Assembly (NCBI RefSeq): GCF_030013595.1
Contig: NZ_CP122771.1
Strand: one strand, 5' to 3'
From: Escherichia coli
Lineage (GTDB): Bacteria; Pseudomonadota; Gammaproteobacteria; Enterobacterales; Enterobacteriaceae
Length of the DNA: 64,000 nt
Position numbers and translations under genes: made by a program. The notes beneath the pieces were generated by a model. It saw nothing but the letters and a program-made list of their open reading frames with translations, ran no database searches and had not been told where the DNA came from. This document shows, piece after piece, positions 4,902 to 64,000 of the stretch (positions within the stretch are counted from its first letter, which is position 1; each line of letters starts with the position of its first letter).

Positions 4902-5363
4902 ATGTATAAACAGGCAACAGAATTAATGCTGAACTTTAAAGACCGCATTCTGATTAAGGGGGAAGAAGATACCGGCAAGTCAACTCTCCTGACTGAAATA
5001 AGAATCAGTGATAGTGATTCCCGGTATTACAACTTTAAAACTCTTAACTCTGCGGGGTATAACCAGCTTTGTGATGAAAATATTGATGATTTTGATTTTC
5101 TGAATACACCTGAAAAGACGTTAATCCTTGATGGAGTCAGGCTGTGTGAAAAGAAAATGACATCAAAAGTTATCAGGTTAATTAAACAGGCCAGAAAATA
5201 TCATAAACGCCTGGTTGTGGTTGCAGACTCATGTGAGTCTGAGTTTATCGAACTGTTGTTTGATGGTGTTATTGCATTGTCCTTCAATTCTGACAGAGAA
5301 AGGAGCTGCAATGTTTATACGCCATCAAGGTGTCGTAATACAGATAATATTTATGCCAGGTAA
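4902..5363 (+). CDS. Hypothetical small P-loop NTPase-like protein
   Basis: AT-rich ORF with RBS aagga before ATG 4902; canonical Walker A GEEDTGKST after a hydrophobic strand and Walker B-like RLVVVADS; no tra-gene counterpart recalled at this position in F. Confidence 0.5.
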   Translation: MYKQATELMLNFKDRILIKGEEDTGKSTLLTEIRISDSDSRYYNFKTLNSAGYNQLCDENIDDFDFLNTPEKTLILDGVRLCEKKMTSKVIRLIKQARKYHKRLVVVADSCESEFIELLFDGVIALSFNSDRERSCNVYTPSRCRNTDNIYAR

Positions 5364-5392
5364 ATGTGTAAACAAAAACAGAGGAGGGTGTA

Positions 5393-5845
5393 ATGAGTAA
5401 TAATATAAAATATGGCTCCAGAATACTTGATATGGGTGTTCTGCTGGAGATGAAAGCGCTTGTGAATGCAAATGGTGGTGTGTCACGGTGCATTATGGAG
5501 TGCCGGCAGCTTGCCTGTGAGGTCCGTCATTCGCAACAATTACTGGATAAGCTGTCATGTATTGACGACTGGCTGTGCCGGTTTTCCTCAATAATGTATC
5601 ACCGTTTTGATAAAGAACAGATTCAGTGGCGGGAGGATGTGGACAGGAATTATCCCAGAGAAAAAGTTTATATTTTCAGTCCCGATGATGTCTCCGTCCA
5701 TAATAATGATATTAAAGACTCTGCCAATAACACATCAGGAATAACCGTGTCGGTTACAGCCAGTAAAATATTTGCAGGTCAGAAAGAGTTTGATGCTTTT
5801 TTAAAACTGGCAGAAAAACTGAGAGAAAACCCTACGGGTAATTAA
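5393..5845 (+). CDS. Hypothetical protein, likely co-operonic partner of the P-loop protein
   Basis: 150-aa AT-rich ORF 30 bp downstream of the previous gene with strong RBS gaggaggg; no recognisable motif. Confidence 0.5.
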   Translation: MSNNIKYGSRILDMGVLLEMKALVNANGGVSRCIMECRQLACEVRHSQQLLDKLSCIDDWLCRFSSIMYHRFDKEQIQWREDVDRNYPREKVYIFSPDDVSVHNNDIKDSANNTSGITVSVTASKIFAGQKEFDAFLKLAEKLRENPTGN

Positions 5846-5872
5846 ATTGTAATAATGCCATCAGGATATATC

Positions 5873-6511
5873 ATGAACTGGAAAATATTTGCACTTTTTG
5901 CCCTGACTGCAGGAATGCATATCACTGTTCATGCCTCAGACAATGTGAACACTCCTGAAAACCGCCAGTTCCTGAAGCAGCAGGAAAATTTAAGCAGACA
6001 ACTGCGTGAAAAACCTGACCATCAGCTGAAGGCCTGGGCGGAGAAACAGGTGCTGGAGAACCCCCTTCAGCGTTCAGATAACCATTTCCTGGATGAGCTG
6101 GTTCGTAAACAGCAGGCTTCGCAGGACGGGAAACCCCGGCAGGGGGCCCTGTATTTTGTGTCGTTTTCCATTCCCGAAGAGGGGCTGAAACGGATGCTGG
6201 GCGAAACCCGGCACTACGGTATACCCGCCACACTGCGGGGCATGGTGAACAATGACCTGAAGACCACCGCTGAAGCCGTGCTGTCCCTGGTGAAAGACGG
6301 CGCGACTGATGGTGTTCAGATCGACCCGACGCTGTTTTCACAGTACGGCATTCGCAGCGTACCGACACTGGTGGTGTTCTGCAGTCAGGGATACGACATC
6401 ATCCGGGGAAACCTGCGGGTCGGCCAGGCGCTGGAGAAAGTGGCCGCCACGGGTGACTGCCGGCAGGTGGCTCATGATTTACTGGCAGGGAAAGGAGATT
6501 CCGGGAAATGA
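5873..6511 (+). CDS. trbC: TrbC (periplasmic pilus assembly protein) with a divergent N-terminus
   Basis: From ...ASDNVNTPENRQFLKQQENLSRQLREKPDHQLKAW the protein matches recalled F TrbC; signal peptide MNWKIFALFALTAGMHITVHA differs from F; upstream ATG at 5855 is an alternative start. Confidence 0.85.
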   Translation: MNWKIFALFALTAGMHITVHASDNVNTPENRQFLKQQENLSRQLREKPDHQLKAWAEKQVLENPLQRSDNHFLDELVRKQQASQDGKPRQGALYFVSFSIPEEGLKRMLGETRHYGIPATLRGMVNNDLKTTAEAVLSLVKDGATDGVQIDPTLFSQYGIRSVPTLVVFCSQGYDIIRGNLRVGQALEKVAATGDCRQVAHDLLAGKGDSGK

Positions 6512-8358
6512 AACGTATGTTACCTCTGATACTGGCTCTGGTTGCCGGCATGGCACAGGCTGACAGCAACAGTGATTACCGGGCCGGTTCTGATTTTGCT
6601 CACCAGATCAAAGGACAGGGAAGCAGCAGTATTCAGGGCTTTAAGCCACAGGAGAGTATCCCCGGCTATAACGCGCATCCGGACGAGACAAAATATTACG
6701 GTGGCGTGACTGCCGGCGGGGATGGCGGCCTGAAAAATGACGGCACCACGGAATGGGCGACCGGTGAAACCGGAAAAACCATCACAGAGTCCTTCATGAA
6801 CAAGCCGAAAGACATTCTTTCACCGGATGCACCGTTCATTCAGACCGGCAGGGATGTGGTGAACCGGGCTGACAGCATTGTGGGAAACACAGGCCAGCAG
6901 TGTAGTGCACAGCAGATAAACCGCAGTGAATTCACAAACTATACCTGTGAACGGGACACGATGGTGGAGGAGTATTGCACACGGACTGCCAGGATCACCG
7001 GAGACTGGAAATACACAGATGAATATCGTGAGGTGACGATACCGCACTCACAGTTCCGGTTCAGTATGAACGGGCTGAAACTGGTGTTCAGTGTCACGGC
7101 TCCGGTAACCGGTACAGTGGAAAGTGCATCATTGTCTGTATACGCCGCTTTTTTCTTCCTGAACTCTCGTTATACCTTCATGAATTCAACGTTCAATGTT
7201 GGCCTGGTAAACGGGCAGTCGGGTACTTTCCCCCTGTCCGGGGCGACAGGTTTGCAGGTGACACAAGGGCAGGTTCTGACCGGCAGTGGCTGTACTGCTA
7301 ACGGTAACTGTCTTTCTGGCGGGAACGGTGACCGACAGGTTTATGAGAAACTGGCCAGCGGCGCGTCCACCTTTACACTGAAACTCAGGATGAAGGTCCG
7401 TGATAAAGAATGGGTTCCACGGGTGGAGTGGGTGGAGAGTTGTCCGTTTAATAAAGCGGATGGCGTGCTGAAAGGCACTGAGTGTTCAGAGCCGGGTGGT
7501 ACGAAAACTGGTGTGATGGAAGGTAAACCCTGGAGCATCACACAGGCGTGCTGGGCATACCGGGATAAATATGTCACACAGTCCGCAGATAATGGTACCT
7601 GTCAGAAATATGTCGATAATCCGGCCTGTACGCTGGCCTCACGTCAGTGCGCGTTTTATTCCGATGAGGGAACCTGTCTGCATGAGTATGCCACGTACTC
7701 CTGCGAGTCAAAAACATCAGGAAAAGTGATGGTCTGTGGTGGTGATGTCTTCTGCCTTGACGGTGAATGCGATAAGGCGCAGAGCGGAAAAAACAGTGAT
7801 TTTGGTGCAGCCGTATCACAGCTGGCTGCGCTTGCCGCTGCTGGTAAGGATGTTGCCGCCCTGAATGGTGTGGATGTCAGGGCTTTCACCGGCGAGGCGA
7901 AATTCTGCCGTAAGGCCGCAGCCGGCTTCAGTAACTGCTGTAAGGATGGTGGCTGGGGTCAGGATGTGGGTCTGGCGAAGTGTAACAGTGAAGAAAAGGC
8001 GCTGGGAAAGGCAAAGGACAACAAACTGACGGTGAGTGTTGGCGAGTTCTGTTCGAAAAAGGTACTCGGTGTCTGCCTGCAGAAAAAGCGCAGCTACTGC
8101 CAGTTTGATTCGAAACTGGCGCAGATAGTCCAGCAGCAGGGGCGTAACGGGCAGCTGCGTATCGGGTTTGGCAGCGCCAAAAGTCCTGACTGTCGTGGAA
8201 TAACCGTGGATGAACTGCAGCGTATTAAGTTCGACCAGCTGGACTTCACTAACTTCTACGAAGACCTGATGAATAACCAGAAAATCCCGGACAGTGGTGT
8301 TCTGACGCAGAAAGTGAAAGAACAGATTGCTGACCAGCTGAAACAGGCAGGACAGTAA
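6508..8358 (+). CDS. traN: TraN, outer-membrane mating-pair stabilisation protein
   Basis: 616 aa, signal peptide MKRMLPLILALVAGMAQA, cysteine-rich C-terminal half; matches F TraN. Confidence 0.95.
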   Translation: MKRMLPLILALVAGMAQADSNSDYRAGSDFAHQIKGQGSSSIQGFKPQESIPGYNAHPDETKYYGGVTAGGDGGLKNDGTTEWATGETGKTITESFMNKPKDILSPDAPFIQTGRDVVNRADSIVGNTGQQCSAQQINRSEFTNYTCERDTMVEEYCTRTARITGDWKYTDEYREVTIPHSQFRFSMNGLKLVFSVTAPVTGTVESASLSVYAAFFFLNSRYTFMNSTFNVGLVNGQSGTFPLSGATGLQVTQGQVLTGSGCTANGNCLSGGNGDRQVYEKLASGASTFTLKLRMKVRDKEWVPRVEWVESCPFNKADGVLKGTECSEPGGTKTGVMEGKPWSITQACWAYRDKYVTQSADNGTCQKYVDNPACTLASRQCAFYSDEGTCLHEYATYSCESKTSGKVMVCGGDVFCLDGECDKAQSGKNSDFGAAVSQLAALAAAGKDVAALNGVDVRAFTGEAKFCRKAAAGFSNCCKDGGWGQDVGLAKCNSEEKALGKAKDNKLTVSVGEFCSKKVLGVCLQKKRSYCQFDSKLAQIVQQQGRNGQLRIGFGSAKSPDCRGITVDELQRIKFDQLDFTNFYEDLMNNQKIPDSGVLTQKVKEQIADQLKQAGQ

Positions 8359-18054: not shown

Positions 18055-20280
18055 ATGAGTTTTAACGCAAAGGATATGACCCAGGGCGGTCAGATTGCGT
18101 CCATGCGTATCCGCATGTTCAGCCAGATCGCCAATATCATGCTTTACTGCCTGTTTATTTTTTTCTGGATACTCGTTGGTCTGATTTTATGGGTAAAAAT
18201 AAGCTGGCAGACGTTTGTGAACGGCTGTATTTACTGGTGGTGTACCACGCTGGAAGGCATGCGGGATTTAATCAAGTCCCAGCCAGTATATGAGATCCAG
18301 TATTACGGCAAAACCTTCCGGATGAACGCGGCTCAGGTACTGCATGATAAATACATGATCTGGTGCGGTGAGCAGCTATGGTCCGCATTCGTTCTGGCGT
18401 CTGTCGTGGCCCTGGTTATTTGCCTGATTACCTTCTTTGTTGTTTCCTGGATTCTGGGGCGTCAGGGTAAACAACAGAGCGAAAATGAAGTCACAGGTGG
18501 TCGTCAGCTGACAGACAATCCGAAAGATGTTGCCCGGATGCTGAAAAAAGACGGCAAGGACTCCGATATCCGGATTGGCGACCTGCCGATTATCCGAGAT
18601 TCCGAAATCCAGAACTTCTGTCTGCACGGCACAGTCGGGGCCGGTAAGTCGGAGGTTATCCGTCGTCTGGCCAACTACGCCCGTAAGCGTGGTGATATGG
18701 TGGTGATTTATGACCGTTCAGGGGAATTTGTTAAAAGTTACTATGATCCCTCCATCGATAAAATCCTGAATCCGCTGGATGCCCGCTGTGCCGCATGGGA
18801 TTTGTGGAAGGAGTGCCTGACACAGCCGGATTTTGATAATACCGCGAACACGCTGATCCCTATGGGTACAAAAGAGGACCCGTTCTGGCAGGGGTCAGGA
18901 CGTACCATTTTTGCGGAAGCGGCGTACCTGATGCGTAATGACCCCAACCGCAGCTACAGCAAACTGGTGGACACACTGCTTTCCATCAAAATCGAAAAAC
19001 TGCGTACCTTCCTGCGTAATTCACCGGCAGCCAACCTGGTGGAAGAGAAAATTGAGAAAACGGCGATTTCCATCCGTGCTGTGCTGACCAACTACGTGAA
19101 AGCCATCCGTTACCTGCAGGGGATTGAGCATAACGGTGAGTCTTTTACCATCCGTGACTGGATGCGTGGTGTCCGGGAAGATCAGAAAAACGGCTGGCTG
19201 TTTATCTCGTCGAATGCCGACACCCATGCCTCCCTGAAGCCGGTGATCTCCATGTGGCTGTCCATTGCCATTCGTGGTCTGCTGGCAATGGGAGAAAACC
19301 GTAATCGTCGTGTGTGGTTTTTCTGTGACGAGTTACCCACGTTACACAAACTGCCGGACCTGGTGGAGATCCTGCCGGAAGCCCGTAAGTTCGGTGGCTG
19401 TTATGTGTTTGGTATCCAGTCCTATGCCCAGCTGGAAGATATCTACGGTGAGAAAGCGGCGGCCACGCTGTTTGACGTCATGAACACCCGTGCCTTTTTC
19501 CGTTCTCCCAGCCATAAGATTGCAGAGTTCGCTGCCGGTGAAATTGGTGAGAAAGAGCACCTGAAAGCCAGCGAGCAGTATTCCTACGGTGCTGACCCGG
19601 TACGTGACGGGGTATCGACCGGTAAGGATATGGAGCGTCAGACGCTGGTCAGTTATTCCGACATTCAGTCTCTGCCGGATCTGACCTGTTATGTCACTCT
19701 GCCCGGACCGTATCCGGCAGTCAAACTCTCTCTGAAATATCAGGCACGTCCGAAGGTTGCCCCGGAGTTTATTCCGCGTGACATCAACCCGGAAATGGAG
19801 AACCGTCTGAGTGCCGTACTTGCCGCAAGGGAAGCAGAAGGTCGCCAGATGGCCAGCCTCTTCGAACCGGAGGTTGCCTCCGGAGAAGGCGTGACTCAGG
19901 CTGAACAGCCACAACAGCCACAACAGCCACAACAGCCACAACAGCCACAACAGCCACAACAGCCACAACAGCCACAACAGCCACAACAGCCACAACAGCC
20001 AGTGTCTTCTGTCATCAATGATAAGAAGTCAGATGCAGGTGTGAGTGTTCCGGCAGGGGGGATCGAGCAGGAGCTGAAAATGAAACCGGAAGAAGAGATG
20101 GAACAGCAACTGCCACCCGGGATCAGTGAATCCGGTGAAGTGGTGGATATGGCCGCTTATGAGGCATGGCAACAGGAAAATCATCCGGACATCCAGCAGC
20201 ATATGCAGCGTCGTGAAGAGGTGAACATTAATGTACACCGGGAGCGCGGGGAGGATGTTGAGCCGGGAGATGATTTCTGA
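18055..20280 (+). CDS. traD: TraD, type IV coupling protein
   Basis: 741 aa, N-terminal TM segments, Walker [10 protein letters not shown]-terminal QQP repeat tract and acidic tail as in F/R100 TraD. Confidence 0.95.
19906..19995 (+). repeat. Tandem 9-bp repeat (cagccacaa) x10 encoding the (QQP)n tract of TraD
   Basis: Ten perfect 9-bp units read directly in the sequence. Confidence 0.9.
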
Positions 20281-26316: not shown

Positions 26317-26370
26317 CGGGTGTGGTATCTTTGACCGCAAGAGGATGATTCGTCAGAGGCAGAACACAGC

Positions 26371-26931
26371 ATGACAGAGCAGAAGCGACCGGTACTGACA
26401 CTGAAGCGGAAAACGGAAGGGGAGACGCCTGTCCGCAGGCGGAAAACCATCATCAATGTCACCACGCCACCAAAGTGGAAGGTGAAAAAGCAGAAGCTGG
26501 CCGAGAAAGCAGCCCGGGAAGCAGAGCTGGCGGCAAAAAAAGCGCAGGCCAGACAGGCACTGTCCATTTATCTGAATCTGCCCACGCTGGATGAGGCCGT
26601 GAATACCCTGAAACCCTGGTGGCCGGGATTGTTTGACGGTGACACGCCCCGGCTTCTGGCCTGCGGTATCCGGGACGTGTTACTGGAAGACGTGGCGCAG
26701 CGGAATATCCCGCTCTCGCATAAAAAACTGCGCAGGGCGCTGAAGGCCATCACCCGTTCAGAAAGCTATCTGTGTGCCATGAAAGCCGGTGCCTGCCGGT
26801 ATGACACGGAAGGGTATGTGACGGAGCATATTTCTCAGGAGGAGGAAGCGTATGCGGCAGCGCGTCTGGATAAAATCCGCCGCCAGAACCGGATAAAGGC
26901 AGAACTTCAGGCCGTGCTTGATGAGAAATAA
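26371..26931 (+). CDS. finO: FinO, RNA chaperone of fertility inhibition (intact)
   Basis: 186 aa with N-terminus [25 protein letters not shown]; full length, not IS-interrupted as in F. Confidence 0.95.
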
Positions 26932-27062
26932 AAAAAAGCCTCCATCAGAGAGGAGGCAGGGAAATAAGGCTTAAAAGGAAATAACTTCCGTACCCGAAAG
27001 GAAGCCAATTCAGTAGATTATTTAACACCATAATACTGACGGGTTAAAGAGGAGTGATAAAG

Positions 27063-27275
27063 ATGAATGGATTCAGAAACAGTTCACGGAACGGTCAGGT
27101 CTGGTGCTGGCAGCGTGCCGGAAGCCGGGCCGTTATTCTGGAAGTCAGTGGTCGCTGGATGGAAGCGGCAGAAGCATGGCGACGGGCTGCCAGTGTTGCA
27201 CCCCGGACAGACTGGCAGCAGTTTGCCCGAAAAAGGGCTGAACACTGCCACCGGCGCTGCCGGGGAAGGGTGTAA
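27063..27275 (+). CDS. Small hypothetical Arg/Trp-rich protein (70 aa)
   Basis: Strong RBS aaagaggag upstream of ATG 27063; basic protein MNGFRNSSRNGQVWCWQRAGSR...; coding status uncertain. Confidence 0.3.
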   Translation: MNGFRNSSRNGQVWCWQRAGSRAVILEVSGRWMEAAEAWRRAASVAPRTDWQQFARKRAEHCHRRCRGRV

Positions 27276-50441: not shown

Positions 50442-50474
50442 TGCGTAAGCGGCTCGCCAGAACCGTATTGATAT

Positions 50475-52046
50475 TTACTGAGAGGTCAGATCAACTTTCC
50501 AGGGCAACAGATCGCGTACCCGGTTTGCCGGCCAATCCTGGATATGCTCAATGACGTAACGCAGCCATTTTTCTGGTTCCACATTGTTCAGACGGCATGT
50601 GCCGATCAGCGAGTACAACACCGCCGCATGTTCGCCACCGCTGTCGGAACCCGCGAAGAGCCAGTTTTTCCGGCCTACGGCCACTCCCCGTAAGGCGTTC
50701 TCTGCGATGTTGTTGTCGATTTCCACCCAGCCATTACTGCAGTACACGTTCAGGGCCTCCCACTGTTTCAGCAGGTATGCGAACGCTTTTGCCGTATCCG
50801 AGTGACGCGACAGTGTTTTCATCTGTTCCTGTATCCAGTCATACAGTGACTGCATCAGTGGAGCCGCTCTGGCTTTTCTTGCTGCCAGACGCTGTTCTGC
50901 TGAACATCCCCGGACTTCTGCCTCGATGACATACAGTTCACCGATACGCTGCAGGGCTTCCGTGGTGATGTCGGTTGGCACTCTTGCATGCACATCGTGG
51001 ATTTTTCTCCGGGCATGGGCCATACACGCGGCTTCCGTTATTCTGCCGGATTCGTATAACGCCCGGTAACCACCGTAAGCATCTGCCTGAAGCACACCGC
51101 TGTAACCGGCCAGGTGATTCTGTGGATGGATACCTTTCCGGTCCGGGCTGTACGCGAACCAGACCGCCGGGGGCATCTGTGAACCGGCGTTACGGTCATC
51201 ACGGACATAGACCCACAGCCGGGCAGTTCTTGTTTTACCACTGCCCGGCTCCTGGACCGGAACGGGGATATCATCCGCATGGACTTTACCGGGCATCAGC
51301 ACATACTGGCGCAGCACGTCATACAGCGGCTCCAGCAGTTCAGCAACGGCACCGGTCCAGCGCCCCAGCGTGGCGCGGCTCAGTTCCACGCCCTGACGAA
51401 GGTATATTTCTGACTGGCGGTATAACGGCAGATGGTCTGCATACTTCCCGGTGACGATATGAGCCAGAAGCCCCGCTCCGGCATAACTGCGTGCAATGGG
51501 TTTTGAAGGTACTGGTGCCTGCACGATATGGTCGCACCGGCAACAGGCCAGTTTCGGACGTTGTGTTTCGATAACCTTAAAAGCGCTGCTGATAAGCTCC
51601 AGTTGCTCTGACACATCACACCCCAGAGGACTGAGGTCACCACCACAGGCCGGGCAGCATTCCTCTTCCGGCCGGATGACCCGGGTTTCACGGGGAAGTG
51701 AGGCCGGTAACGGCTTACGGGCTGAAGACTGGCGCAGGGCGGATGGCAGTACCGGGTCATATTGCTCATCCAGCGTTTCCGCCATTTCTTCCTGAAGTGC
51801 GCTGATTCGCTCCTGGGCTTCCTGTATCTGCCGTTCGGTTTTAGCGCGAAGTTTTTCTGAGCTTTTACCGAACTGCATGCGCTGCAGTTTCGCAACCAGC
51901 GCCTTCAGCCGGTTGATTTCGGAAGCATAAGCCGCCACCCGCTGTGAGAGCAGGCGGTTGTATTTCGCCATCTGGCGGATGGTGTCCTGTTGCGTCTGCA
52001 ACAGTGCCCGCAGGCGGGCATTCTCATGAGCAAGTGAGGTGTCCAT
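50475..52046 (-). CDS. IS66-family transposase (TnpC)
   Basis: 523 aa with N-terminal coiled coil, CxxC...CC zinc-finger region and DDE-type core typical of IS66 TnpC. Confidence 0.9.
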
Positions 52047-52065
52047 ATCCTCACTTTACAACGGG

Positions 52066-52413
52066 TTATATGCGGATGCCAGCGCGTTCCGTTCGTTTCG
52101 GGTGCTTCCAGTCGATGCCTTCGAGAAGCATGGACAACTGAGCCGGAGTAAGGTGAACCTTTCCATCGCGGGTGACCGGCCAGACGAAGCGGCCCCGCTC
52201 CAGGCGTTTGGTGAAGAGGCACAGTCCGTCACTGTCAGCCCACAGCACTTTTATCTGGTCACCCCGGCGTCCGCGGAAGATGAACAGATGCCCGGAGAAC
52301 GGGTCATCCTTCAGGACGTTCTGAACTTTTGAGGCCAGGCCGTTAAAGCCATTTCGCATATCGGTGATACCGGCAACCAGCCAGATACGCGAACCGGCAG
52401 GGAGAGATATCAT
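52066..52413 (-). CDS. IS66-family accessory protein TnpB (Orf2)
   Basis: 115 aa, MISLPAGSRIWLVAGITDMRNGFNGLA... typical IS66 Orf2. Confidence 0.85.
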   Translation of the reverse strand: MISLPAGSRIWLVAGITDMRNGFNGLASKVQNVLKDDPFSGHLFIFRGRRGDQIKVLWADSDGLCLFTKRLERGRFVWPVTRDGKVHLTPAQLSMLLEGIDWKHPKRTERAGIRI

Positions 52414-53063
52414 CAGTGGCTGCTCCCTTTCATTTCGCGGATAAGTGTCTGTAATAACGCCGGTGTCAGTTCACCTTTCAGCCTGAGAGTTCCGGCCGGC
52501 AGAACCAGCTCGCAGCACAGACTGTCTGGCAGTGTATTTATCTGTTCAGGTATCTGCACTGGTGCCGGGATTTTATTATCCGGCTCCGGAGTTAACGTCA
52601 CGGGAAGTAGCGATGTTTCATGTTCGCCGGGCGGTTGCAGGCCACCGTTACGCCAGAGATGCCGCCAGTTAAAGAGCAGGTTATCGTTAATTCCATTCTC
52701 TCGAGCTATTTGTGCGACACAAGCACCGGGTAAAAGAGTTTGCTGAACCAGTCTCCATTTAAACTCCGGTGAAAATCGGTTCCGGCGGGGTTTCTCTGCT
52801 TTCACAGGCTGAGTCACGGTCGGGGCTGAAGGGTATCGCCCCGGGAAAAGAGCCCGGGCCAGTTGCCCGCAGGAATATTCACCGGAAAGAGGCCAGTCAG
52901 TGAATACCTGGTGAAATCGCCTCACCAGAGAAAAAATGGCGGTTTTGCTGACACCGGTCTGCGCAGAAATGCGCGGGTACGACAGTGACTCGTCAAATCT
53001 CAGCTGTAGCACACGCAGGATCAATTCCGGATTGTCTGCCAGTACCGCTTTTCGTGCATTCAT
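52413..53063 (-). CDS. IS66-family accessory protein TnpA (Orf1, HTH)
   Basis: 216-aa ORF overlapping the tnpB start; first gene of the IS66 operon. Confidence 0.75.
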   Translation of the reverse strand: MNARKAVLADNPELILRVLQLRFDESLSYPRISAQTGVSKTAIFSLVRRFHQVFTDWPLSGEYSCGQLARALFPGRYPSAPTVTQPVKAEKPRRNRFSPEFKWRLVQQTLLPGACVAQIARENGINDNLLFNWRHLWRNGGLQPPGEHETSLLPVTLTPEPDNKIPAPVQIPEQINTLPDSLCCELVLPAGTLRLKGELTPALLQTLIREMKGSSH

Positions 53064-53374
53064 CTTAAATGTCCCTTTACTGCGAAAATGGACATTAGTA
53101 TCGGAAACAGGAAAGGGAGGCGAAAGACGGTTTAAATGAGACGGTTACCGTGATGCGGCAACAATCACATGGATTTCCCGTGAACGGTCTGAATGAGCGG
53201 ATTATTTTCAGGGAAAGTGAGTGTGGTCAGCGTGCAGGTATATGGGCTATGATGTGCCCGGCGCTTGAGGCTTTCTGCCTCATGACGTGAAGGTGGTTTG
53301 TTGCCGTGTTGTGTGGCAGAAAGAAGATAGCCCCGTAGTAAGTTAATTTTCATTAACCACCACGAGGCATCCCT

Positions 53375-53902: not shown

Positions 53903-56246
53903 GGGTCGGGTAGCAGCGGCACATTGCTGCGCCGCCGCCCCCTAAGAACGGAGCGTGCGAGTTTTCCCGCACTCCGCTCAAGCCTTTATAAGTGCTTTCG
54001 GTGAGCACCGGCTTCCCTGCTGTGTAACTGTCGGTGGCAGTTCGGATGTAACAACTCGAGATTGGTCAGTTCGTCACTGCCGCCCATAACTTTCCTGATC
54101 CGGTGATGTATATTCCATCCGGTCTGGTTGGTTATGAGTTGTCCGCACTGCGGACAGTGTTTCCCCTGCCTCTTCCAGAGTTGAACTACTGTCTTCATCT
54201 TCTTTGATTTGCCTTTCCAGATTAGATCCAGACGACGTTCAAAGTAGATTTCCATTCCGGGGGTGTATGGTGTTGCTTCGCCTTTGATTTTTATATGGCG
54301 CTTTATCGGTGTTTCCATTGCCCGGAAGAGTGTCAGAATTTTCCCTTCCGGGGTTATGGCTTTAAAGATCCAGCGCCTGCCTTCAAAGGAGAAGTATCGT
54401 CCGGCGATCCACCGCAATCCTTTCCGGGGATGCCGTCTTACACACCATCGCCATATAGCTCGCCAGATTTGGGTGTCGACATAATTAAATGTTTCTTTCG
54501 CCACGACGTGTCGGTGATAGGTAGCCCATCCCCGGATCACCGGGTTTAGCTGGCCTATCAGTTTCCATGCCGGGAGCGTCGGATTGCGTTTAATTATTTC
54601 TCTGACTTTACAGAGGAAGTTCTTCAGGTTTTTCTTCGACGGTTTAATCAGCATTTTACCGTTGTACTTCCTGACGTTCTGCCCTAAAAAGTCGAAGCCT
54701 TTATCTATATGTGTGATCGCTGTTTTTTCTTCCGACAGTTCCAGCCCTCGTTCGCGCATGAAAGCTGCAATCAGTGGTCTGACCTCATTTTCCAGCAATT
54801 CACGGGAGCTGCCTGAACAGATGAAATCATCAGCATATCTCACATAATTCACCTGGTGCTTTGCACTGTGATAACCACTTTTCCTGAACGTTTGCATCAG
54901 TTCCTTCTCCAGTCCGTCCAGAGCCATGTTGGCGAGAACAGGGGATATGATGCCTCCCTGCGGTGTCCCGCTGTTCGTATGGTTAAACACGCCTCTTTCC
55001 ATGTAACCTGCTTTCAACCATTTTTTAAGCAGTCTCCTGTCCATCGGAATATGGGAAAGCAGCCAGTCATGGCTGATGTTATCGAAACACCCTTTAATAT
55101 CGCCCTCCAGTATCCATTTGGGCGATACTTTCTGGCTCATCCGCAGAAAAATGGACTCAATGGCGTCATGCGTGCTGCGCATTGGTCTGAAACCATAGCT
55201 GTTATGGTCAGCAGTGGTCTCGGATACGGGTTCCAGAGCCAGCAGCCACAGTGCCTGCATGGCCCGGTCCCTCATTGTGGGTATGCCCAGCGGTCGCGTT
55301 TTGCCGTTTGATTTTGGGATATGTATTCGCCGTAGTGGCTGTGGCCTGTAACCACACAGATTCAGGCTGCATATTCCTTCCCATTTCTCCTTCGGTGTGT
55401 GCCATATTTTTCCGTCAATACCGGGTGTCCTTTTACCGGTATTTTCAGTTACACGCCTGACAGCCACGGCTTTGCCGGAGAATGAGCGGGTGAGGATGCG
55501 CTGTAGTTCTCTGACCTGCCGCCATTGTTGCTGTCGGGTTGCCTTTGCAATCCGTAACTGTAGCTTTCGCACCCGGGCATGGCATGCTTTCCAGTTTATG
55601 GTGTGCCAGCCTGTCGGGTGGGGTATCGTGGACACACTGATGTGTGTATTCATCTCGCTGATATCCTTTTGACTGCTTTACAGCTTTTCATGCAATTAAA
55701 GACCAGACGGAAGTCTGCCCGCTTTCGCGTCGGGGAACCTGCCCCGTATCCCGGTTATTACGGCCGGGCATTCGCTTTTTCCGTCCTCCTATGCCCGCAC
55801 CGCTAACAGTGTTCCTTGCGGTTCACCTGCCTGTGAGGCAGCGATACGGGTTTACCAGGTTCCGCTTAACATACAGAGGGTCAGGGCGGGTTCTGTCTCT
55901 TCACCGGGGGTCTCTGCGCCCATGTGCTCCCTGTGCGCGAGGTAGCAACCGGACCCCGTACCTTTTGGTTCAGGCCTGTCAGCATCTTTGGCCTGTTGCC
56001 GATAACGGTGTTTATCAACAGTTCACATGTGTTAACCCTTCTGACCAGCCTTGCTCTCCTGCCGCATGATGCTTGCAGCAAGGTAAAGCCCCTCACGGGG
56101 CTTTACCCGGGCTGACGCCCGGCTCTCGTTGTCCCGGGAGCTTCAGACCCCGCCGTTGCCGGCAACGCCTGTCCCGGTAGGCTACAGCTAATGGGATAGC
56201 TGGTTTTATCAATGTAAAACAATACGTTAAGCGACTTCCTGTCGCA
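53903..56246 (-). mobile_element. Group II intron (about 2.34 kb) inserted in a type B leading-region repeat; low-coordinate boundary uncertain by about 10 bp
   Basis: Minus-strand 5' end GTGCGAC at 56246; domain V GAGCGGAGTGCGGGAAAACTCGCACGCTCCGTTC at 53946-53979; flanks rejoin to match uninterrupted copy 1 at 42459-42510. Confidence 0.8.
53986..55653 (-). CDS. Group II intron-encoded protein (reverse transcriptase / maturase / HNH endonuclease)
   Basis: 555 aa with RT motifs (YADD), maturase X region and C-terminal HNH-like Cys/His cluster. Confidence 0.9.
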   Translation of the reverse strand: MNTHISVSTIPHPTGWHTINWKACHARVRKLQLRIAKATRQQQWRQVRELQRILTRSFSGKAVAVRRVTENTGKRTPGIDGKIWHTPKEKWEGICSLNLCGYRPQPLRRIHIPKSNGKTRPLGIPTMRDRAMQALWLLALEPVSETTADHNSYGFRPMRSTHDAIESIFLRMSQKVSPKWILEGDIKGCFDNISHDWLLSHIPMDRRLLKKWLKAGYMERGVFNHTNSGTPQGGIISPVLANMALDGLEKELMQTFRKSGYHSAKHQVNYVRYADDFICSGSSRELLENEVRPLIAAFMRERGLELSEEKTAITHIDKGFDFLGQNVRKYNGKMLIKPSKKNLKNFLCKVREIIKRNPTLPAWKLIGQLNPVIRGWATYHRHVVAKETFNYVDTQIWRAIWRWCVRRHPRKGLRWIAGRYFSFEGRRWIFKAITPEGKILTLFRAMETPIKRHIKIKGEATPYTPGMEIYFERRLDLIWKGKSKKMKTVVQLWKRQGKHCPQCGQLITNQTGWNIHHRIRKVMGGSDELTNLELLHPNCHRQLHSREAGAHRKHL

Positions 56247-56835
56247 CGCGCACCTTCGGCTCCCGGCTGCCTGGCGGCATCCGGTCGTCAGGCCCGACTC
56301 CGACAGGCAGCTGCTGGCGCACCTGCCAGTCTCCGCCGAACCCGCTGGCGCGGTTTCGGGCTGTCGCTACGGTCCGATGCGTGAAAACCCCGGGCTTGCA
56401 GCGACCGTTCCGGTCGCGCCGCCTCTGTCGCGCCGTGGCCTGCGCTCCCGGCATCCCGGCAAAAGGCCGCCGGGATGTAAGGCGCAACGCCGTTTCGCAA
56501 ACCGCGCTTCACGTCGTTGCGGCGGGTCCCTGCCCGTTGTTGTGTCCGGTGCCATTCACCTGTTTAAGCCCCTGTCGCCGGGGGCATAGACAGCCACAAC
56601 CGTCTCCGCCAGTCCAGGGGTGAAATGCACATCCCGCAAAACTTTTTGCCCAGAAGCAGGCAAAAACTTTTGCGGTCTGCCCCCGGACAGTCGTTTCCGG
56701 CCGTGGCAGTGATGCCCCATGCGGCGAAGGTTCTCAAACAGGTGATGGTGAATACCGGAGGGAACAAAAGGCAGGTCCCCGCAAAACGTCAAAACCGCGG
56801 CTCCCGAAACTCAACAGATGATGGGGGCTGAAAAC
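56247..56835 (+). repeat. Leading-region repeat type B, copy 3 (its 5' portion at 53862-53902 is separated by the intron; hairpin at 56635-56674)
   Basis: Aligns with copy 1 from gcgcaccttcggctcccggctgcctggcgg onward. Confidence 0.7.
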
Positions 56836-56855
56836 CAGAGAGAGGAGAAAGCAGG

Positions 56856-57143
56856 ATGAGTACCCGAAATATCCACGTTAACACCGCGTCGTACACGCTT
56901 CTTGTTGCCGGGAAGAAAAAAAACACCGGGGAAGAGTGGGACGTCCTGGAATTCAGCAGCCTGACTGAGCTGAAAAAATATCGCAAAAGCCACCCGGAAA
57001 AGATGGCCTTCAGTTATAGCTACGCGCTCAGTCAGGGTGTGGATAAGCAGTTCCGCCATATCAACATTGCGGAAGCCGATCACTTCAAACAGTTCCTGCG
57101 TCAGATTAAGCGTGCCGGCCTCGATATCCGGGCGATCTGCTGA
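56856..57143 (+). CDS. Hypothetical leading-region protein (95 aa)
   Basis: RBS gagaggaga before ATG 56856; first ORF after repeat B copy 3. Confidence 0.5.
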   Translation: MSTRNIHVNTASYTLLVAGKKKNTGEEWDVLEFSSLTELKKYRKSHPEKMAFSYSYALSQGVDKQFRHINIAEADHFKQFLRQIKRAGLDIRAIC

Positions 57144-57260
57144 CCGGATGTGATGAATACCCCTCCTGATTGTTGCAATCTTGTTAATGGAGATCGGGGG
57201 GATGATATTAAGCGGAAAAATTTTTTATTAAATTTATTCTTTCATAAAGGAGTAGCTGTT

Positions 57261-58082
57261 ATGCGATTAGCTTCCCGTTTTGGTCGGTATAATTCCATCC
57301 GCCGTGAACGTCCTTTAACGGATGATGAATTAATGCAGTTCGTGCCTTCGGTATTTTCCGGTGATAAACATGAGTCCCGGAGTGAACGTTATACGTATAT
57401 TCCAACAATCAATATCATCAATAAGTTACGTGATGAAGGTTTCCAGCCATTCTTTGCCTGTCAGAGTCGGGTTCGTGATTTGGGACGTCGCGAATACAGT
57501 AAACATATGTTACGTCTTCGCAGGGAAGGGCATATTAACGGACAGGAAGTTCCTGAAATTATCCTGCTTAATTCACATGATGGTTCATCCAGTTATCAGA
57601 TGATCCCCGGAATTTTTCGTTTTGTCTGCACAAATGGCCTGGTGTGCGGAAATAATTTTGGCGAAATCCGCGTTCCACATAAAGGTGATATTGTCGGGCA
57701 GGTTATCGAGGGAGCGTATGAAGTGCTCGGTGTCTTTGATAAGGTCACTGATAATATGGAGGCGATGAAAGAAATTCATCTTAACAGTGACGAGCAACAT
57801 TTATTTGGCAGAGCTGCACTGATGGTCAGGTATGAAGATGAAAATAAAACGCCAGTGACACCTGAACAGATAATTACTCCCCGTCGTCGGGAAGACAAAC
57901 AGAACGATCTCTGGACAACCTGGCAGCGGGTTCAGGAGAATATGATAAAAGGTGGATTATCGGGGCGAAGTGCCTCCGGGAAAAATACCAGGACAAGAGC
58001 CATTACAGGTATTGATGGTGATATAAGAATCAACAAGGCGTTATGGGTGATTGCCGAACAGTTCAGAAAGTGGAAGTCATGA
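57261..58082 (+). CDS. Conserved leading-region protein (273 aa)
   Basis: RBS aagga then ATG 57261; uninterrupted ORF. Confidence 0.55.
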   Translation: MRLASRFGRYNSIRRERPLTDDELMQFVPSVFSGDKHESRSERYTYIPTINIINKLRDEGFQPFFACQSRVRDLGRREYSKHMLRLRREGHINGQEVPEIILLNSHDGSSSYQMIPGIFRFVCTNGLVCGNNFGEIRVPHKGDIVGQVIEGAYEVLGVFDKVTDNMEAMKEIHLNSDEQHLFGRAALMVRYEDENKTPVTPEQIITPRRREDKQNDLWTTWQRVQENMIKGGLSGRSASGKNTRTRAITGIDGDIRINKALWVIAEQFRKWKS

Positions 58083-58091
58083 TAATATAAG

Positions 58092-58120
58092 TAAAGCCCC
58101 GAAAAAATTTTCGGGGTTTT
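58092..58120 (+). terminator. Rho-independent terminator
   Basis: AAAGCCCCGAAAAAATTTTCGGGGTTTT perfect hairpin with T-run, 10 bp after the stop. Confidence 0.7.
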
Positions 58121-58378
58121 ACTTATATTATCATTTTTCGGCATTGCTGTGTCGTCTGATATACCTCAATTTCATCGACCGGCTTTCCGGTTGTCTGTAA
58201 ATATTGTGCCCGCGAAAAATGGTCTGGCAGGAGGCTGCGCAGTTACCGGGTATATATAAGATGGGTTCCCGCTTCGCGGGGCTTCGGCCAGTCAGTATTG
58301 TCACTCATATGATATTTTTGTGTGTGGCCTTCCATGCCGCTTTTGCGGCATAACCGGTATCTGACAATGTCTGTAAGA

Positions 58379-58888
58379 TTAATTGTTCTGCACGCTGTTA
58401 ATTTCCGGAAGTGATTTCTTCGTGGCCGGAAGCCGGATACCTTTACTGCTTTTTATCCCGGTATAAATCCGGTAAACCTCTGATGCGTAGGCAAGACGTC
58501 TCTGGTTCTGGCGTTCGGATTTCCTGAATCCTGCATTGTATGCACCAACGGCCTCCCAGGTGACGCCCCATTTTTTAAATGCTATTGCCAGATAATAAGC
58601 ACCGGTATAAATGTTCATGCAGGGATCTGTTGTCAGATGTTCCGGCTTAATTCCATAGCGGGCCAGTTCGTTAAAATGCTGGGAATCTACCTGCATCAGT
58701 CCGCTGCCATATCCCGTTACCGGATTAATACCGATGGCATTAACCCGGTAACGGGATTCTTTCCATGATATTGCTCTCAGTAAATCAGGATCTATTTTGT
58801 AATCCCGGCCTGCAAGATCAAAGCAATCAGTGGCATGGCAGATCTCATTTATAAACATCAGGCAGATGGCTAACATCCATTTTTTCAT
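58379..58888 (-). CDS. Lytic transglycosylase (SLT domain; F orf169 / gene X equivalent)
   Basis: 169 aa from ATG 58888; signal peptide; SLT motifs [10 protein letters not shown] and GLMQV; adjacent to oriT. Confidence 0.85.
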
Positions 58889-58934
58889 TTTTCCACCTCT
58901 GGTGACTTTATCCGTAAATAATTTAACCCACTCC

Positions 58935-59200
58935 ACAAAAAGGCTCAACAGGTTGGTGGTTCTCACCACCAAAAGCACCACACACTACGCAAAAACAAGT
59001 TTTTGCTGATTTGCCTTTTAAATCATGTAATTAACAAATGCTATTTATATTTAATAATTCTGAATTATTAAATAGAGAGTCGTTGGCGATCCTGTTACGA
59101 CCCTATAGCGACCCTTATTAGGATCAGTACTGACAATTTTCATGAAAAACATTGATATATATTAGGGGCGCCACTAGCGCCGGATCGCATTTTTTTATAG
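58935..59200 (+). other. oriT region with R100-type nic sequence (nic near 58979/58980 on the minus strand)
   Basis: Minus-strand TTTGCGTAGTGTGT^GGTGCTTTTGGTGGTGAGAACCACC matches recalled F-family oriT with R100-type nic core; followed by AT-rich region and inverted repeats before traM. Confidence 0.7.
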
Positions 59201-59303
59201 GATGATCCTAGAGGCGCTGCTAGGAGTGTCTTTCTTACTTGTAAACACTATATGCATATTTATAGTGAAAAGTTCATTGCTTAATTATGAAAGGTTTTAT
59301 CTT

Positions 59304-59687
59304 ATGGCCAGAGTAATTTTGTATATCAGTAATGATGTCTATGACAAAGTAAATGCGATAGTTGAACAGCGTCGTCAGGAGGGGGCAAGAGATAAAGATA
59401 TAAGTGTTTCGGGAACAGCTTCAATGCTTCTTGAACTGGGGCTTCGCGTACATCAGGCTCAGATGGAGCGTAAAGAGTCTGCATTTAATCAGACTGAGTT
59501 TAATAAATTACTTCTTGAATGTGTTGTAAAAACACAGTCATCAGTAGCGAAAATTTTGGGTATTGAGTCTCTAAGTCCCCATGTCTCCGGGAATCCAAAG
59601 TTTGAATATGCCAATATGGTTGAAGATATTCGTGAGAAGGTGTCATCTGAGATGGAACGATTTTTTCCAAAAAATGATGAGGAATAA
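59304..59687 (+). CDS. traM: TraM, oriT-binding relaxosome protein
   Basis: 127 aa MARVILYISNDVYDKVNAIVEQRRQEGARDKDISVSGTASMLLELGLRV... Confidence 0.9.
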   Translation: MARVILYISNDVYDKVNAIVEQRRQEGARDKDISVSGTASMLLELGLRVHQAQMERKESAFNQTEFNKLLLECVVKTQSSVAKILGIESLSPHVSGNPKFEYANMVEDIREKVSSEMERFFPKNDEE

Positions 59688-59794
59688 AAAAGAATTAAAA
59701 GTTGATTTACTTCAAATAACAGGATTTTGATCTGGTTCAATTTGATGACAATTAACCACATAAAGGGTATATTAATTATGTGGTTAATGCCACG

Positions 59795-59875
59795 TTAAAA
59801 ATTTAGTTTAAATCGCCGATGCAGGGAGAGCGACCTCCCTGCATCGACTGTCCATAGAATCCTTTGAGAGGAGGT
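59795..59875 (-). ncRNA. finP: FinP antisense RNA (approximate position)
   Basis: Region upstream of the traJ start contains hairpin TGCAGGGAG...CTCCCTGCA (59819-59845) where the traJ leader/finP stem-loops are expected; coordinates inferred. Confidence 0.35.
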
Positions 59876-59879
59876 TCCT

Positions 59880-60551
59880 ATGTATCCGACGGATCGTAGA
59901 CAACTTAATACTGAACGTCAAATATATTTGGATAAACAGTCTTTTGTAGATGTTTTTTCAATCCCTGCTTGCGTTCGAAATACTAATGGAGATTTTATCG
60001 GCTACAATGAAAAATTCTCTAAAGAATTTATAGGTAGTCTTGATATCAAAGAGTGGTTTTACTCCCTTCCTGTACAAGTAGCTACATCGTTTTTAAGAGA
60101 AGAACTGGATGCTATGTCTTTGCCTTCGTCCATGAATAAAATACAGAGCGTGGCTATAGGTGATAAACTCTGGCTGGTACAATTTATACCATTAATATAT
60201 GGGGAGGTGGTTAATGTTTTATGGCTTTTTTTCTGCAAAAATTCTAATGTGATAGTGGATTATTGTAGAGGATTACGTTCAAATATAACAAATGACAGAA
60301 TGCTTGAATTTAAAAACAAATCAACGGAAATCCAATGGAAAGTTTTTATTCTTTATTCATTTGGTTTTTGTCATGAATCGATAGCATCTCTTTTGTCTAT
60401 TACTAATGGTTCTTCCCGGAATGCAATTTCAGAAGTGTATAAGTTTTTCGGTATACATTCAAAACATGATTTGTTAATGATTTTTCATACAAGTAGGATG
60501 CATAGTTTATTTTTTGATGAATTGTTTTTTATTTTAAAATGTGCTGAATAG
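59880..60551 (+). CDS. traJ: TraJ, positive regulator of the tra operon
   Basis: 223-aa AT-rich ORF between traM and traY; RBS gagagg before ATG. Confidence 0.85.
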
Positions 60552-60687
60552 TTGATGTTTTGTTTTTGTTAAAAACAAGGTGACATTATGTCACCTTGTT
60601 TTGTTAATGTAATTTACTCTATTTTTGTTTCTATTTTTATGGATTCGTATAATTATATTTAATTATCTAAGTGGCTGAGGAGGAGAC

Positions 60688-60915
60688 TTGAGCAGAAATA
60701 TAATAAGGCCTGCTCCGGGCAATAAAGTTTTACTGGTATTGGACGATGCTACTAATCACAAGCTCTTAGGTGCCCGGGAGCGCAGCGGGAGAACAAAAAC
60801 TAATGAGGTGCTAGTCAGGTTACGTGATCATCTGAGCCGTTTTCCTGACTTTTATAATCTGGATGCAATAAAGGAGGGAACAGGGGAAACTGATTCGATA
60901 ATTAAAGATCTTTAA
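60688..60915 (+). CDS. traY: TraY, RHH relaxosome accessory protein (TTG start, 75 aa)
   Basis: RBS gaggaggag before TTG 60688; 75 aa as in R100-type TraY. Confidence 0.8.
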   Translation: MSRNIIRPAPGNKVLLVLDDATNHKLLGARERSGRTKTNEVLVRLRDHLSRFPDFYNLDAIKEGTGETDSIIKDL

Positions 60916-60972
60916 GTTTATTAATCTATCCACAATAGAGGTAACTTATGAATGCTATTTTGAGTGTTCAGG

Positions 60973-62029
60973 GGCTTTGTTGAATAAATCGAACTTTTGC
61001 TGAGTTGAAGGATCAGATCACGCATCCTCCCGACAACACAGACCATTCCGTGGCAAAGCAAAAGTTCAGAATCACCAACTGGTCCACCTACAACAAAGCT
61101 CTCATCAACCGTGGCTCCCTCACTTTCTGGCTGGATGATGAAGCGATTCAGGCCTGGTATGAGTCGGCAACGCCTTCATCACGAGGAAGGCCCCAGCGCT
61201 ATTCTGATCTCGCCATCACCACCGTTCTGGTGATTAAACGCGTATTCCGGCTGACCCTGCGGGCTGCGCAGGGCTTTATTGATTCCATTTTTTCTCTGAT
61301 GAACGTTCCGCTACGCTGCCCGGATTACAGCTGTGTCAGCAGGCGGGCAAAGTCGGTTAATGTCAGTTTCAAAACGCCCACCCGGGGTGAAATCGCACAC
61401 CTGGTAATTGATTCCACCGGGCTGAAGGTCTTCGGTGAAGGCGAGTGGAAAGTCAAAAAGCATGGCCAGGAACGCCGCCGTATCTGGCGTAAGCTGCATC
61501 TCGCCGTTGACAGTAAAACACATGAAATCATCTGCGCTGACCTGTCGCTGAACAACGTTACGGACTCAGAGGCCTTCCCCGGGTTAATCCGGCAAACCCA
61601 CCGGAAAATCAGGTCAGCCGCCGCCGATGGCGCTTACGATACCCGGCTATGTCACGATGAACTGCGGCGTAAGAAAATCAGCGCGCTTATCCCTCCCCGA
61701 AAAGGTGCGGGTTACTGGCCCGGTGAATATGCAGACCGTAACCGTGCAGTGGCTAATCAGCGAATGACCGGGAGTAATGCGCGGTGGAAATGGACAACAG
61801 ATTACAACCGTCGCTCGATAGCGGAAACGGCGATGTACCGGGTAAAACAGCTGTTCGGGGGTTCACTGACGCTGCGTGACTACGATGGTCAGGTTGCGGA
61901 GGCTATGGCCCTGGTACGAGCGCTGAACAAAATGACGAAAGCAGGTATGCCTGAAAGCGTGCGTATTGCCTGAAAACACAACCCGCTACGGGGGAGACTT
62001 ACCCAAAATCTGATTTATTCAACAAAGCC
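60973..62029 (+). mobile_element. IS903 (IS5 family, 1057 bp) with 9-bp target duplication GTGTTCAGG
   Basis: Terminal inverted repeats GGCTTTGTTGAATAAATCG at both ends; GTGTTCAGG at 60964-60972 and 62030-62038. Confidence 0.9.
61005..61973 (+). CDS. IS903 transposase
   Basis: 322-aa ORF filling the element; DDE-type IS5-family transposase. Confidence 0.9.
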   Translation: MKDQITHPPDNTDHSVAKQKFRITNWSTYNKALINRGSLTFWLDDEAIQAWYESATPSSRGRPQRYSDLAITTVLVIKRVFRLTLRAAQGFIDSIFSLMNVPLRCPDYSCVSRRAKSVNVSFKTPTRGEIAHLVIDSTGLKVFGEGEWKVKKHGQERRRIWRKLHLAVDSKTHEIICADLSLNNVTDSEAFPGLIRQTHRKIRSAAADGAYDTRLCHDELRRKKISALIPPRKGAGYWPGEYADRNRAVANQRMTGSNARWKWTTDYNRRSIAETAMYRVKQLFGGSLTLRDYDGQVAEAMALVRALNKMTKAGMPESVRIA

Positions 62030-62386
62030 GTGTTCAGGGTGCTTCTGCGCCCGTCAAAAAGAAGTCGTTTTTTTCTAAATTCACTCGTCTGAATATGCTT
62101 CGCCTGGCTCGCGCTGTGATCCCGGCTGCTGTTCTGATGATGTTCTTCCCGCAGCTGGCGATGGCCGCCGGCAGTAGTGGTCAGGACCTGATGGCAAGCG
62201 GTAACACCACGGTTAAGGCGACCTTCGGTAAGGACTCCAGTGTTGTTAAATGGGTTGTTCTGGCTGAAGTTCTGGTCGGTGCTGTCATGTACATGATGAC
62301 CAAAAACGTCAAGTTCCTGGCCGGTTTTGCCATCATCTCTGTATTTATTGCTGTGGGTATGGCCGTCGTTGGCCTGAAATAAAACG

Positions 62387-62698
62387 ATGTCGGGAGACGA
62401 GAATAAACTTAAGAAATATCGTTTCCCGGAAACACTGACCAACCAGAGCCGCTGGTTTGGCCTGCCACTGGATGAGCTGATCCCCGCAGCAATCTGTATT
62501 GGCTGGGGTATCACAACATCGAAATATCTGTTCGGTATTGGTGCAGCGGTTCTGGTTTATTTCGGGATTAAAAAACTGAAAAAAGGGCGGGGCAGTTCCT
62601 GGTTACGTGACCTGATTTACTGGTATATGCCAACAGCCCTGCTGCGCGGTATTTTTCATAATGTTCCCGATTCGTGTTTCCGGCAGTGGATTAAATAG
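62387..62698 (+). CDS. traL: TraL
   Basis: ...[59 protein letters not shown]... matches recalled F TraL. Confidence 0.9.
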
Positions 62699-62719
62699 AA
62701 CTGATACCAGGATTGTTAT

Positions 62720-63286
62720 ATGGAACACGGTGCCCGTTTAAGTACCAGTCGTGTAATGGCCATCGCCTTTATATTTATGTCAGTGCTTATTGTTCTCAGC
62801 CTCTCTGTTAACGTCATTCAGGGGGTGAATAACTACCGTCTTCAGAATGAGCAACGCACTGCGGTGACGCCAATGGCATTTAATGCCCCCTTTGCCGTGT
62901 CACAGAATAGTGCCGATGCCTCTTATTTACAGCAGATGGCGCTGTCATTTATTGCCCTCCGTCTGAATGTTTCATCAGAAACTGTCGATGCCTCACATCA
63001 GGCGCTTCTGCAATATATTCGTCCGGGGGCACAGAACCAGATGAAAGTTATTCTGGCCGAAGAAGCCCAGCGTATTAAAAACGATAACGTGAATTCTGCT
63101 TTTTTCCAGACCAGTGTCCGTGTCTGGCCTCAGTATGGCCGTGTGGAAATTCGTGGAGTGCTTAAAACCTGGATTGGTGATTCAAAACCTTTCACTGATA
63201 TCAAACATTACATCCTTATTCTGAAGCGGGAAAACGGGGTGACCTGGCTGGATAATTTCGGGGAAACAGACGATGAGAAAAAATAA
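62720..63286 (+). CDS. traE: TraE
   Basis: 188 aa with N-terminal TM segment; size and position as F TraE. Confidence 0.9.
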
Positions 63287-64000
63287 TACAGCAATAATAT
63301 TCGGCGGCCTGTTTTTTTCCTGCAGCGTGATGGCCGGAGCCGGTACGCTGGCCCCCACAGTGGTGCCAATGGTGAACGGTGGTCAGGCCAGTATTGCCAT
63401 CAGTAATACCAGCCCGAATCTGTTTACCGTTCCCGGTGACCGGATTATCGCCGTGAACAGTCTGGATGGTGCCCTGACCAATAATGAGCAGACCGCCTCC
63501 GGCGGTGTGGTGGTTGCCACCGTCAACAAAAAGCCCTTTACGTTCATTCTGGAAACAGAACGTGGTCTGAATCTTTCCATTCAGGCCGTTCCCCGTGAAG
63601 GCGCGGGGCGTACCATTCAGCTGGTCAGTGACCTGCGCGGAACCGGAGAAGAAGCCGGTGCGTGGGAAACGTCCACGCCTTACGAATCCCTGCTTGTGAC
63701 CATCAGCCAGGCCGTCCGTGGCGGAAAATTACCCGCAGGCTGGTATCAGGTCCCAGTGACAAAGGAAACCCTGCAGGCCCCGGCGGGGCTGTCTTCAGTG
63801 GCAGATGCCGTATGGACGGGGAATCACCTGAAGATGGTCCGCTTTGCCGTGGAAAATAAAACGCTGTCTGCTCTGAGTATCCGGGAAAGTGACTTCTGGC
63901 AGCCGGGAACCCGTGCCGTGATGTTCAGCCAGCCTGCCAGCCAGTTACTGGCTGGTGCGCGCATGGATGTGTATGTCATCCGTGACGGGGAGGGCAACTG
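63273..64000 (+). CDS. traK: TraK, 5' part (runs off the window)
   Basis: ATG 63273 overlaps the traE end; signal peptide [21 protein letters not shown]; secretin-like N-domain. Confidence 0.85.

Follow-up and report, generated by a model that had tools for sequence, protein, structure and literature searches.

Structure of the interrupted traA locus

The window, i.e., the whole stretch of 64,000 nucleotides analyzed here, is a circular permutation of an F-like plasmid. It opens within traR and closes with the final sense codon of traK, with the distal transfer genes from traC to finO at 248-26931 and the head of the tra operon (traM, traJ, traY, traA, traL, traE, and traK) at 59304-64000. 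The traA gene is located between traY and traL, at the operon head; it extends from the ATG at 60948 to the last base of the TAA stop at 62382. The gene is split into two parts. The 5′ fragment (60948..60972, + strand) comprises nucleotides 1-25, that is, codons 1-8 and the first base of codon 9, and is 100% identical to plasmid NZ_CP122686.1; the 3′ fragment (62039..62382, + strand) comprises nucleotides 26-369, from the remainder of the leader through the mature pilin to the stop codon. In a tblastn comparison, positions 62032-62379 match residues 7-122 of TraA of this relative at 100%.

The fragments are separated by an IS903B element of 1057 bp (60973-62029, + strand), whose transposase is co-oriented with the tra operon. 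Its left terminal inverted repeat, GGCTTTGTTGAATAAATC (60973-60990, + strand, 18 bp), has an exact reverse complement as the right one (62012-62029, − strand, 18 bp). Both ends of the element abut copies of the 9-bp sequence GTGTTCAGG, the left copy at 60964-60972 and the right copy at 62030-62038. This sequence is present just twice in the 64-kb window, each copy touching one end of the IS, and the chance of a 9-bp match at one given pair of positions is about 4e-6. Because the 9-bp duplication abuts perfect inverted repeats, we consider the event a real transposition. The first-pass annotation had described a 1057-bp element with IS903 terminal inverted repeats, flanked by a 9-bp duplication and inserted after codon 9; the element, its repeats, and the duplication are all borne out, while the insertion site, correctly placed near this codon, proves to lie after nucleotide 25, inside codon 9. 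The Gly at codon 9 is re-created by chance, as the first two bases of the IS are GG.

The 1057 bp are 99.9% identical, over the full length, to many copies annotated in RefSeq as IS5-like element IS903B. The transposase reading frame (61005-61973, + strand) encodes 322 amino acids from a TTG and matches the IS5-family transposase profile NF033579 with 358 bits (cutoff 140) over profile positions 1-289 of 289; we take the likely product to be the 307-residue protein starting at the GTG at 61050. The element has all the features by which IS903B was recognized: a length of about 1057 bp, 18-bp repeats, a 9-bp duplication, a single intact IS5-family DDE transposase, and near-identity to the references. 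Matches to IS903B are found in 1,992 of the 5,426 complete E. coli genomes, and in 1,536 of the 5,426 the match covers at least 80% of the IS; positive genomes carry it in a median of 2 and a maximum of 47 places. No second copy of the inverted-repeat sequence is present in the 64-kb window, and the donor of the element must therefore reside elsewhere in the host or in the part of the plasmid, approximately 3 kb, that the window does not cover. A terminator-like hairpin inside the IS (61255-61273) was considered as evidence of polarity and dropped, since its occurrence is within chance expectation (2 sites versus a mean of 2.1 in shuffled sequences).

Deletion in silico of positions 60973-62038, i.e., of the IS and one copy of the duplication, yields a 369-bp reading frame encoding a 122-residue TraA propilin, and the propilin frame is restored as had been proposed. 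The restored product scores 231.7 bits (cutoff 150) against NF010294, the profile of the F-type conjugative transfer system pilin TraA, 134.5 bits (cutoff 76.55) against TIGR02758, and 225.9 bits against Pfam PF05513. Compared with the F propilin in PDB entry 9moq, all 121 residues align with one substitution, the leader residue I4V; the restored propilin has one extra C-terminal Lys. The match to TIGR02758 starts only at residue 23 of the propilin, which suggests that the first 20 or so residues of the leader are not conserved across the pilin family. The uninterrupted reading frame of an F-type TraA is absent here, and the locus agrees with such a gene in all other sequence properties tested; it is a traA pseudogene created by IS903B.

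The nearest relatives are two IncF plasmids of Belgian pig ETEC isolates, NZ_CP122686.1 (67,634 bp) and CP122741.1 (66,207 bp). A comparison with related plasmids lacking the insertion had been suggested as a check, and these two provide it: in both, traA is annotated, uninterrupted, and 100% identical to the restored gene, and the insertion site has one copy of GTGTTCAGG. The identity between the window and NZ_CP122686.1 is 99.9% in the flank 56237-60977 and 100% in the flank 62030-64000. Our literature search retrieved no paper on the ETEC4067 and ETEC1745 genomes.

Integrity of the transfer region and distribution of the insertion

The transfer genes compared are those in the window; to judge by NZ_CP122686.1, the approximately 3.1 kb of the operon outside it hold traB, traP, trbD/trbG, traV, the 5′ end of traR, and the stop codon of traK. 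Thirty other tra-region proteins compared with NZ_CP122686.1 align end to end in the window, most of them with 100% identity. The full-length set includes the pilin chaperone TraQ, the acetylase TraX, and TraD, TraI, TraM, TraY, TraJ, and FinO; seven tra-region genes were re-translated and contain no internal stop. The oriT-proximal sequence, traM, traY, traD, and traI are all intact. Directly upstream of the pilin gene, traY (60688..60915, + strand), the first gene of the tra operon, is intact and has 100% amino acid identity to the relative, and so has traL (62387..62698, + strand), the first gene 3′ of traA and hence exposed to polarity. With traA disrupted, the essential set of pilus, channel, and DNA-processing genes is incomplete.

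All parts of the FinOP system, i.e., FinO, FinP, and the traJ 5′ leader, are present. As had been noted in the first-pass annotation, finO (26371..26931, + strand) is intact; it encodes 186 amino acids, scores 362 bits against NF010317 (cutoff 136), and is 98.9% identical to FinO of the relative. The gene of the FinP antisense RNA (59809..59886, − strand) gives a full-length match to RF00107 (94.7 bits) and overlaps the traJ 5′ leader (59778-59885, + strand), which gives a full-length match to RF00243 (109.6 bits). The activator of the tra operon promoter, traJ (59880..60551, + strand), is also intact, with 519 bits against NF010272 (cutoff 442) and 100% identity to the relative. Judging by these genes, the plasmid would have been repressed already before the insertion and would have served as a donor at low frequency only.

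The insertion itself was found nowhere else. With a 351-bp query spanning the left junction, neither the 72,556 plasmids of PLSDB nor the 5,426 complete E. coli genomes gave a match over 80% or more of its length, and JGI metagenome contigs do not contain the exact 38-nt sequence of the junction. Given this absence from plasmids, E. coli genomes, and metagenomes, the insertion is evidently a private and recent event. Further evidence of recency comes from the flanks, 99.9% and 100% identical to the relative, and from the other compared tra genes, all of which are full length. Among plasmid records with this type of traA, the gene is contiguous in 3718/3749 (99.2%), so that it appears to be normally kept intact. 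A literature search returned no published report of IS903 in traA, the titles and abstracts that it yielded being concerned with other topics.

Inactivation of a conjugation gene by an IS is a known kind of event; this instance is new, and it will not surprise a specialist. Compared with other genes inactivated by IS903B, the element is the same in its 1057 bp, perfect 18-bp repeats, 9-bp duplication, single transposase frame, and 99.9% identity; only the target differs, this junction in traA not having been found in PLSDB, complete E. coli genomes, or JGI metagenomes. In the classical F plasmid, IS3 lies in finO and transfer is derepressed. There, too, a single IS in one tra-region gene alters the transfer phenotype of an F-like plasmid, which in our case is a prediction, but the outcome is opposite: here finO is intact and the structural pilin gene is destroyed.

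Two other F-like plasmids show IS-mediated decay of conjugation genes. In pMUB-MIN12-1 (NZ_CP069658.1), IS903B occupies the position of traK: at the locus 5258-7039, it is flanked by traE and traB, and the annotation has no traK, an independent strike of this IS on a pilus-assembly gene of an IncF plasmid. The ST131 plasmid pMRY09-592ECO_1 (NZ_AP018457.1 38143-44206, locus 3001-3900) has an IS1-bounded deletion from traA nucleotide 74 to trbA: the match to traA ends at nucleotide 74 and is followed by the IS1 transposase and trbA. The genes from traA to trbA are missing from it, yet MOB-suite typing in PLSDB calls it 'conjugative', so that transfer ability is overcalled by typing on gene presence. 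In further records, IS2, ISApl1, and ISKpn26 interrupt the traM-traY region. Whereas in pMUB-MIN12-1 and pMRY09-592ECO_1 other sites are affected or many genes are gone, the present case is a simple insertion with the other genes intact, and it is the earliest recognizable step of tra decay.

Expression across the insertion and alternative readings

Translation from the native traA ATG, which is preceded by the Shine-Dalgarno sequence AGAGGT (anti-SD duplex −7.1 kcal/mol), ends after 11 codons: the abortive frame (60948..60983, + strand) encodes MNAILSVQGLC and closes with a TGA inside the left inverted repeat. At the other end of the element, the traA frame is shut by a TGA at 62011, and the first ATG, GTG, or TTG afterwards is the ATG at 62095, corresponding to Met28 of the propilin. 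The sole remaining reading frame of traA (62095..62382, + strand) starts here and would encode 95 amino acids, the first 24 of them forming the leader MLRLARAVIPAAVLMMFFPQLAMA. Inspection of this leader shows the layout of an ordinary signal peptide, with two Arg residues, a hydrophobic core, and A-M-A at the native cleavage site. No Shine-Dalgarno pairing for Met28 is seen in the 20 nt upstream (+0.4 kcal/mol, versus −7.1 at the native start). A consensus scan detected no sigma-70-like outward promoter on the + strand, and a scan relaxed to 8 of 12 matches detected no site on the + strand at 61850-62094; the literature search gave nothing specific to IS903 on an outward promoter. The first-pass annotation had allowed for rescue by an outward IS promoter and an internal start; without Shine-Dalgarno pairing at Met28 and with no sigma-70-like promoter, such rescue looks unlikely. 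Expression from Met28 would need both read-through from the traY promoter over the 1 kb of the IS and Shine-Dalgarno-independent internal initiation, a combination that we consider improbable. Two short contigs exactly matching the 95-residue product are uninformative, since they begin 1-2 nt before the ATG and represent contig-end truncations without the IS.

In our preferred reading, to which we assign a probability of about 0.8, traA was inactivated by a single recent transposition of IS903B, in a conjugative F-like plasmid (about 67 kb, FinOP-regulated) that is complete in all other respects. The traA mutation is, in this reading, null and probably polar. Ribosomes initiating at the native ATG would stop inside the IS, and no propilin with the normal 51-residue leader would be made. 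Long untranslated stretches of mRNA favor Rho-dependent termination. Since the insert is long, poorly translated, and situated within a single long operon, polarity is expected on general principles: traL, traE, traK, and the later genes, all reliant on the promoter upstream of traY, would be expressed at a lower level.

Reviews of the F pilin describe the 51-residue leader and the maturation pathway through LepB, TraQ, and TraX. F and pED208 with traA deleted show no transfer and no pili unless pilin is given in trans (PMC10939261). The present case has in common with these deletions the loss of the propilin of an F-type type IV secretion system; in contrast to them, engineered and non-polar, it is a natural IS insertion near the 5′ end of the gene, probably polar and known from sequence. 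As TraA is required for F-type transfer and piliation, the plasmid should lack pili and self-transfer: without pilin, neither an F pilus nor a functional mating channel would form, and bacteria that carry the plasmid should be resistant to male-specific phages. A transfer defect is, on the strength of the gene structure, almost certain, in agreement with the first-pass annotation, where the plasmid was read as probably transfer-defective or strongly repressed. A co-resident F-like plasmid that supplies the pilus and the channel in trans could still mobilize the plasmid, which is plausible because oriT, traM, traY, traD, and traI are intact. Complementation of this kind is classical knowledge of F-like systems.

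The null character of the mutation would be softened if read-through or IS-internal transcripts were translated from Met28 (62095) and a low level of piliation and transfer were kept. In such a leak, TraQ would assist the insertion of the short-leader propilin, LepB would cleave it, and TraX would acetylate it. The frame from Met28 is indeed open to the native stop, its 24-residue leader resembles a standard signal peptide and retains the native A-M-A cleavage site, TIGR02758 covers the propilin from residue 23 only, traQ and traX are intact, and the transposase is co-oriented with the operon, hence read-through is possible. However, given the unpaired start at Met28 and the promoter-like sites missing from the + strand of 61850-62094 even in the relaxed scan, such a leak is unlikely; in addition, the long untranslated stretch would favor Rho-dependent termination, the intact FinOP system already keeps transcription of the operon low, and 99% of related plasmids keep the full 51-residue leader. 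Even so, the Met28 product may yield small amounts of pilin that can be processed. It is quite improbable that the insertion is not null, with the 95-residue product inserted, cleaved, and assembled, and with low-level transfer sustained through IS903B read-through; if true, a natural plasmid could do without the N-terminal half of the F propilin leader, which is unusually long.

The remaining alternatives concern the origin of the insertion. Loss of the pilus could have been favored, via protection against male-specific phages or a lower cost of the plasmid; this involves the same null mechanism, is compatible with the preferred reading, and differs from it only in the evolutionary cause. We regard it as possible rather than likely. 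That traA alone is hit, the rest of the operon being pristine, agrees with selection, as does the IS-linked tra damage in pMUB-MIN12-1, in pMRY09-592ECO_1, and in the records with an interrupted traM-traY region; on the other hand, the insertion was encountered only once, nothing indicates that it recurs or spreads, selection and drift cannot be told apart from one event, and the intact FinOP system already holds piliation low. It is very improbable that the IS copy is an artefact, misplaced by the assembler or transposed during laboratory passage. Speaking for an artefact are the well-known tendency of repeats to be misassembled, the abundance of IS903B in E. coli, and the uniqueness of the junction in the databases searched; but a precise 9-bp duplication abutting perfect IS ends is a signature of transposition that a misjoin would not yield, and an IS that moved during passage would be genuinely inserted all the same. 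The insertion may be present in part of the sequenced population only.

Inactivation of traA by a recent IS903B transposition is of value mainly for annotation and epidemiology and opens no new biological question. Typing based on the presence of relaxase and mating-pair genes would probably label this plasmid 'conjugative', though it is very likely not self-transmissible. The locus offers a clean snapshot of the first step in the decay of a tra operon, with one IS and the rest pristine, and the insertion-free relatives form with it a natural, isogenic-like pair for studies of the cost and benefit of piliation.

Other differences from the closest relative

Several further differences from NZ_CP122686.1 are seen in the window, and no resistance or toxin cargo was obvious in the parts inspected. 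At the traX-finO junction (26321-27229), the alpha/beta-hydrolase gene that separates traX from finO in NZ_CP122686.1 (27267-28127) is absent, and the finO stretch is 92% identical at the DNA level, with neighboring stretches at approximately 98-99%. The missing hydrolase gene and the low DNA identity of finO suggest that the end of the tra operon is a recombinational mosaic. The traD frame (18055-20280) is open and encodes 741 amino acids, compared with 777 in NZ_CP122686.1; aligned by tblastn, the two are 95.4% identical with 36 gap positions, and the difference may reflect length variation in the C-terminal repeat region.

At position ~33576, the window lacks a segment of approximately 5.7 kb of NZ_CP122686.1 (35343-41025), in which this relative carries IS91, another yacAB pair (its second), a hydrolase of the NlpC/P60 type, and IS1. 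The leading region of the window, in turn, carries two elements on the − strand. One is an IS66-family element (~50446-53148) with reading frames at 52413-53063, 52066-52413, and 50475-52046, missing from the corresponding site of NZ_CP122686.1. The other is a complete group II intron (53905-56203) that adjoins hok/sok; the stretch 53906-56236 has no counterpart in NZ_CP122686.1. The intron is matched in Rfam by domains 1-4 at 56054-56203 (RF02012, 121.7 bits) and by the 3′ catalytic domains at 53905-53981 (RF00029), and its reverse transcriptase/maturase frame (53986-55653) encodes 555 amino acids.
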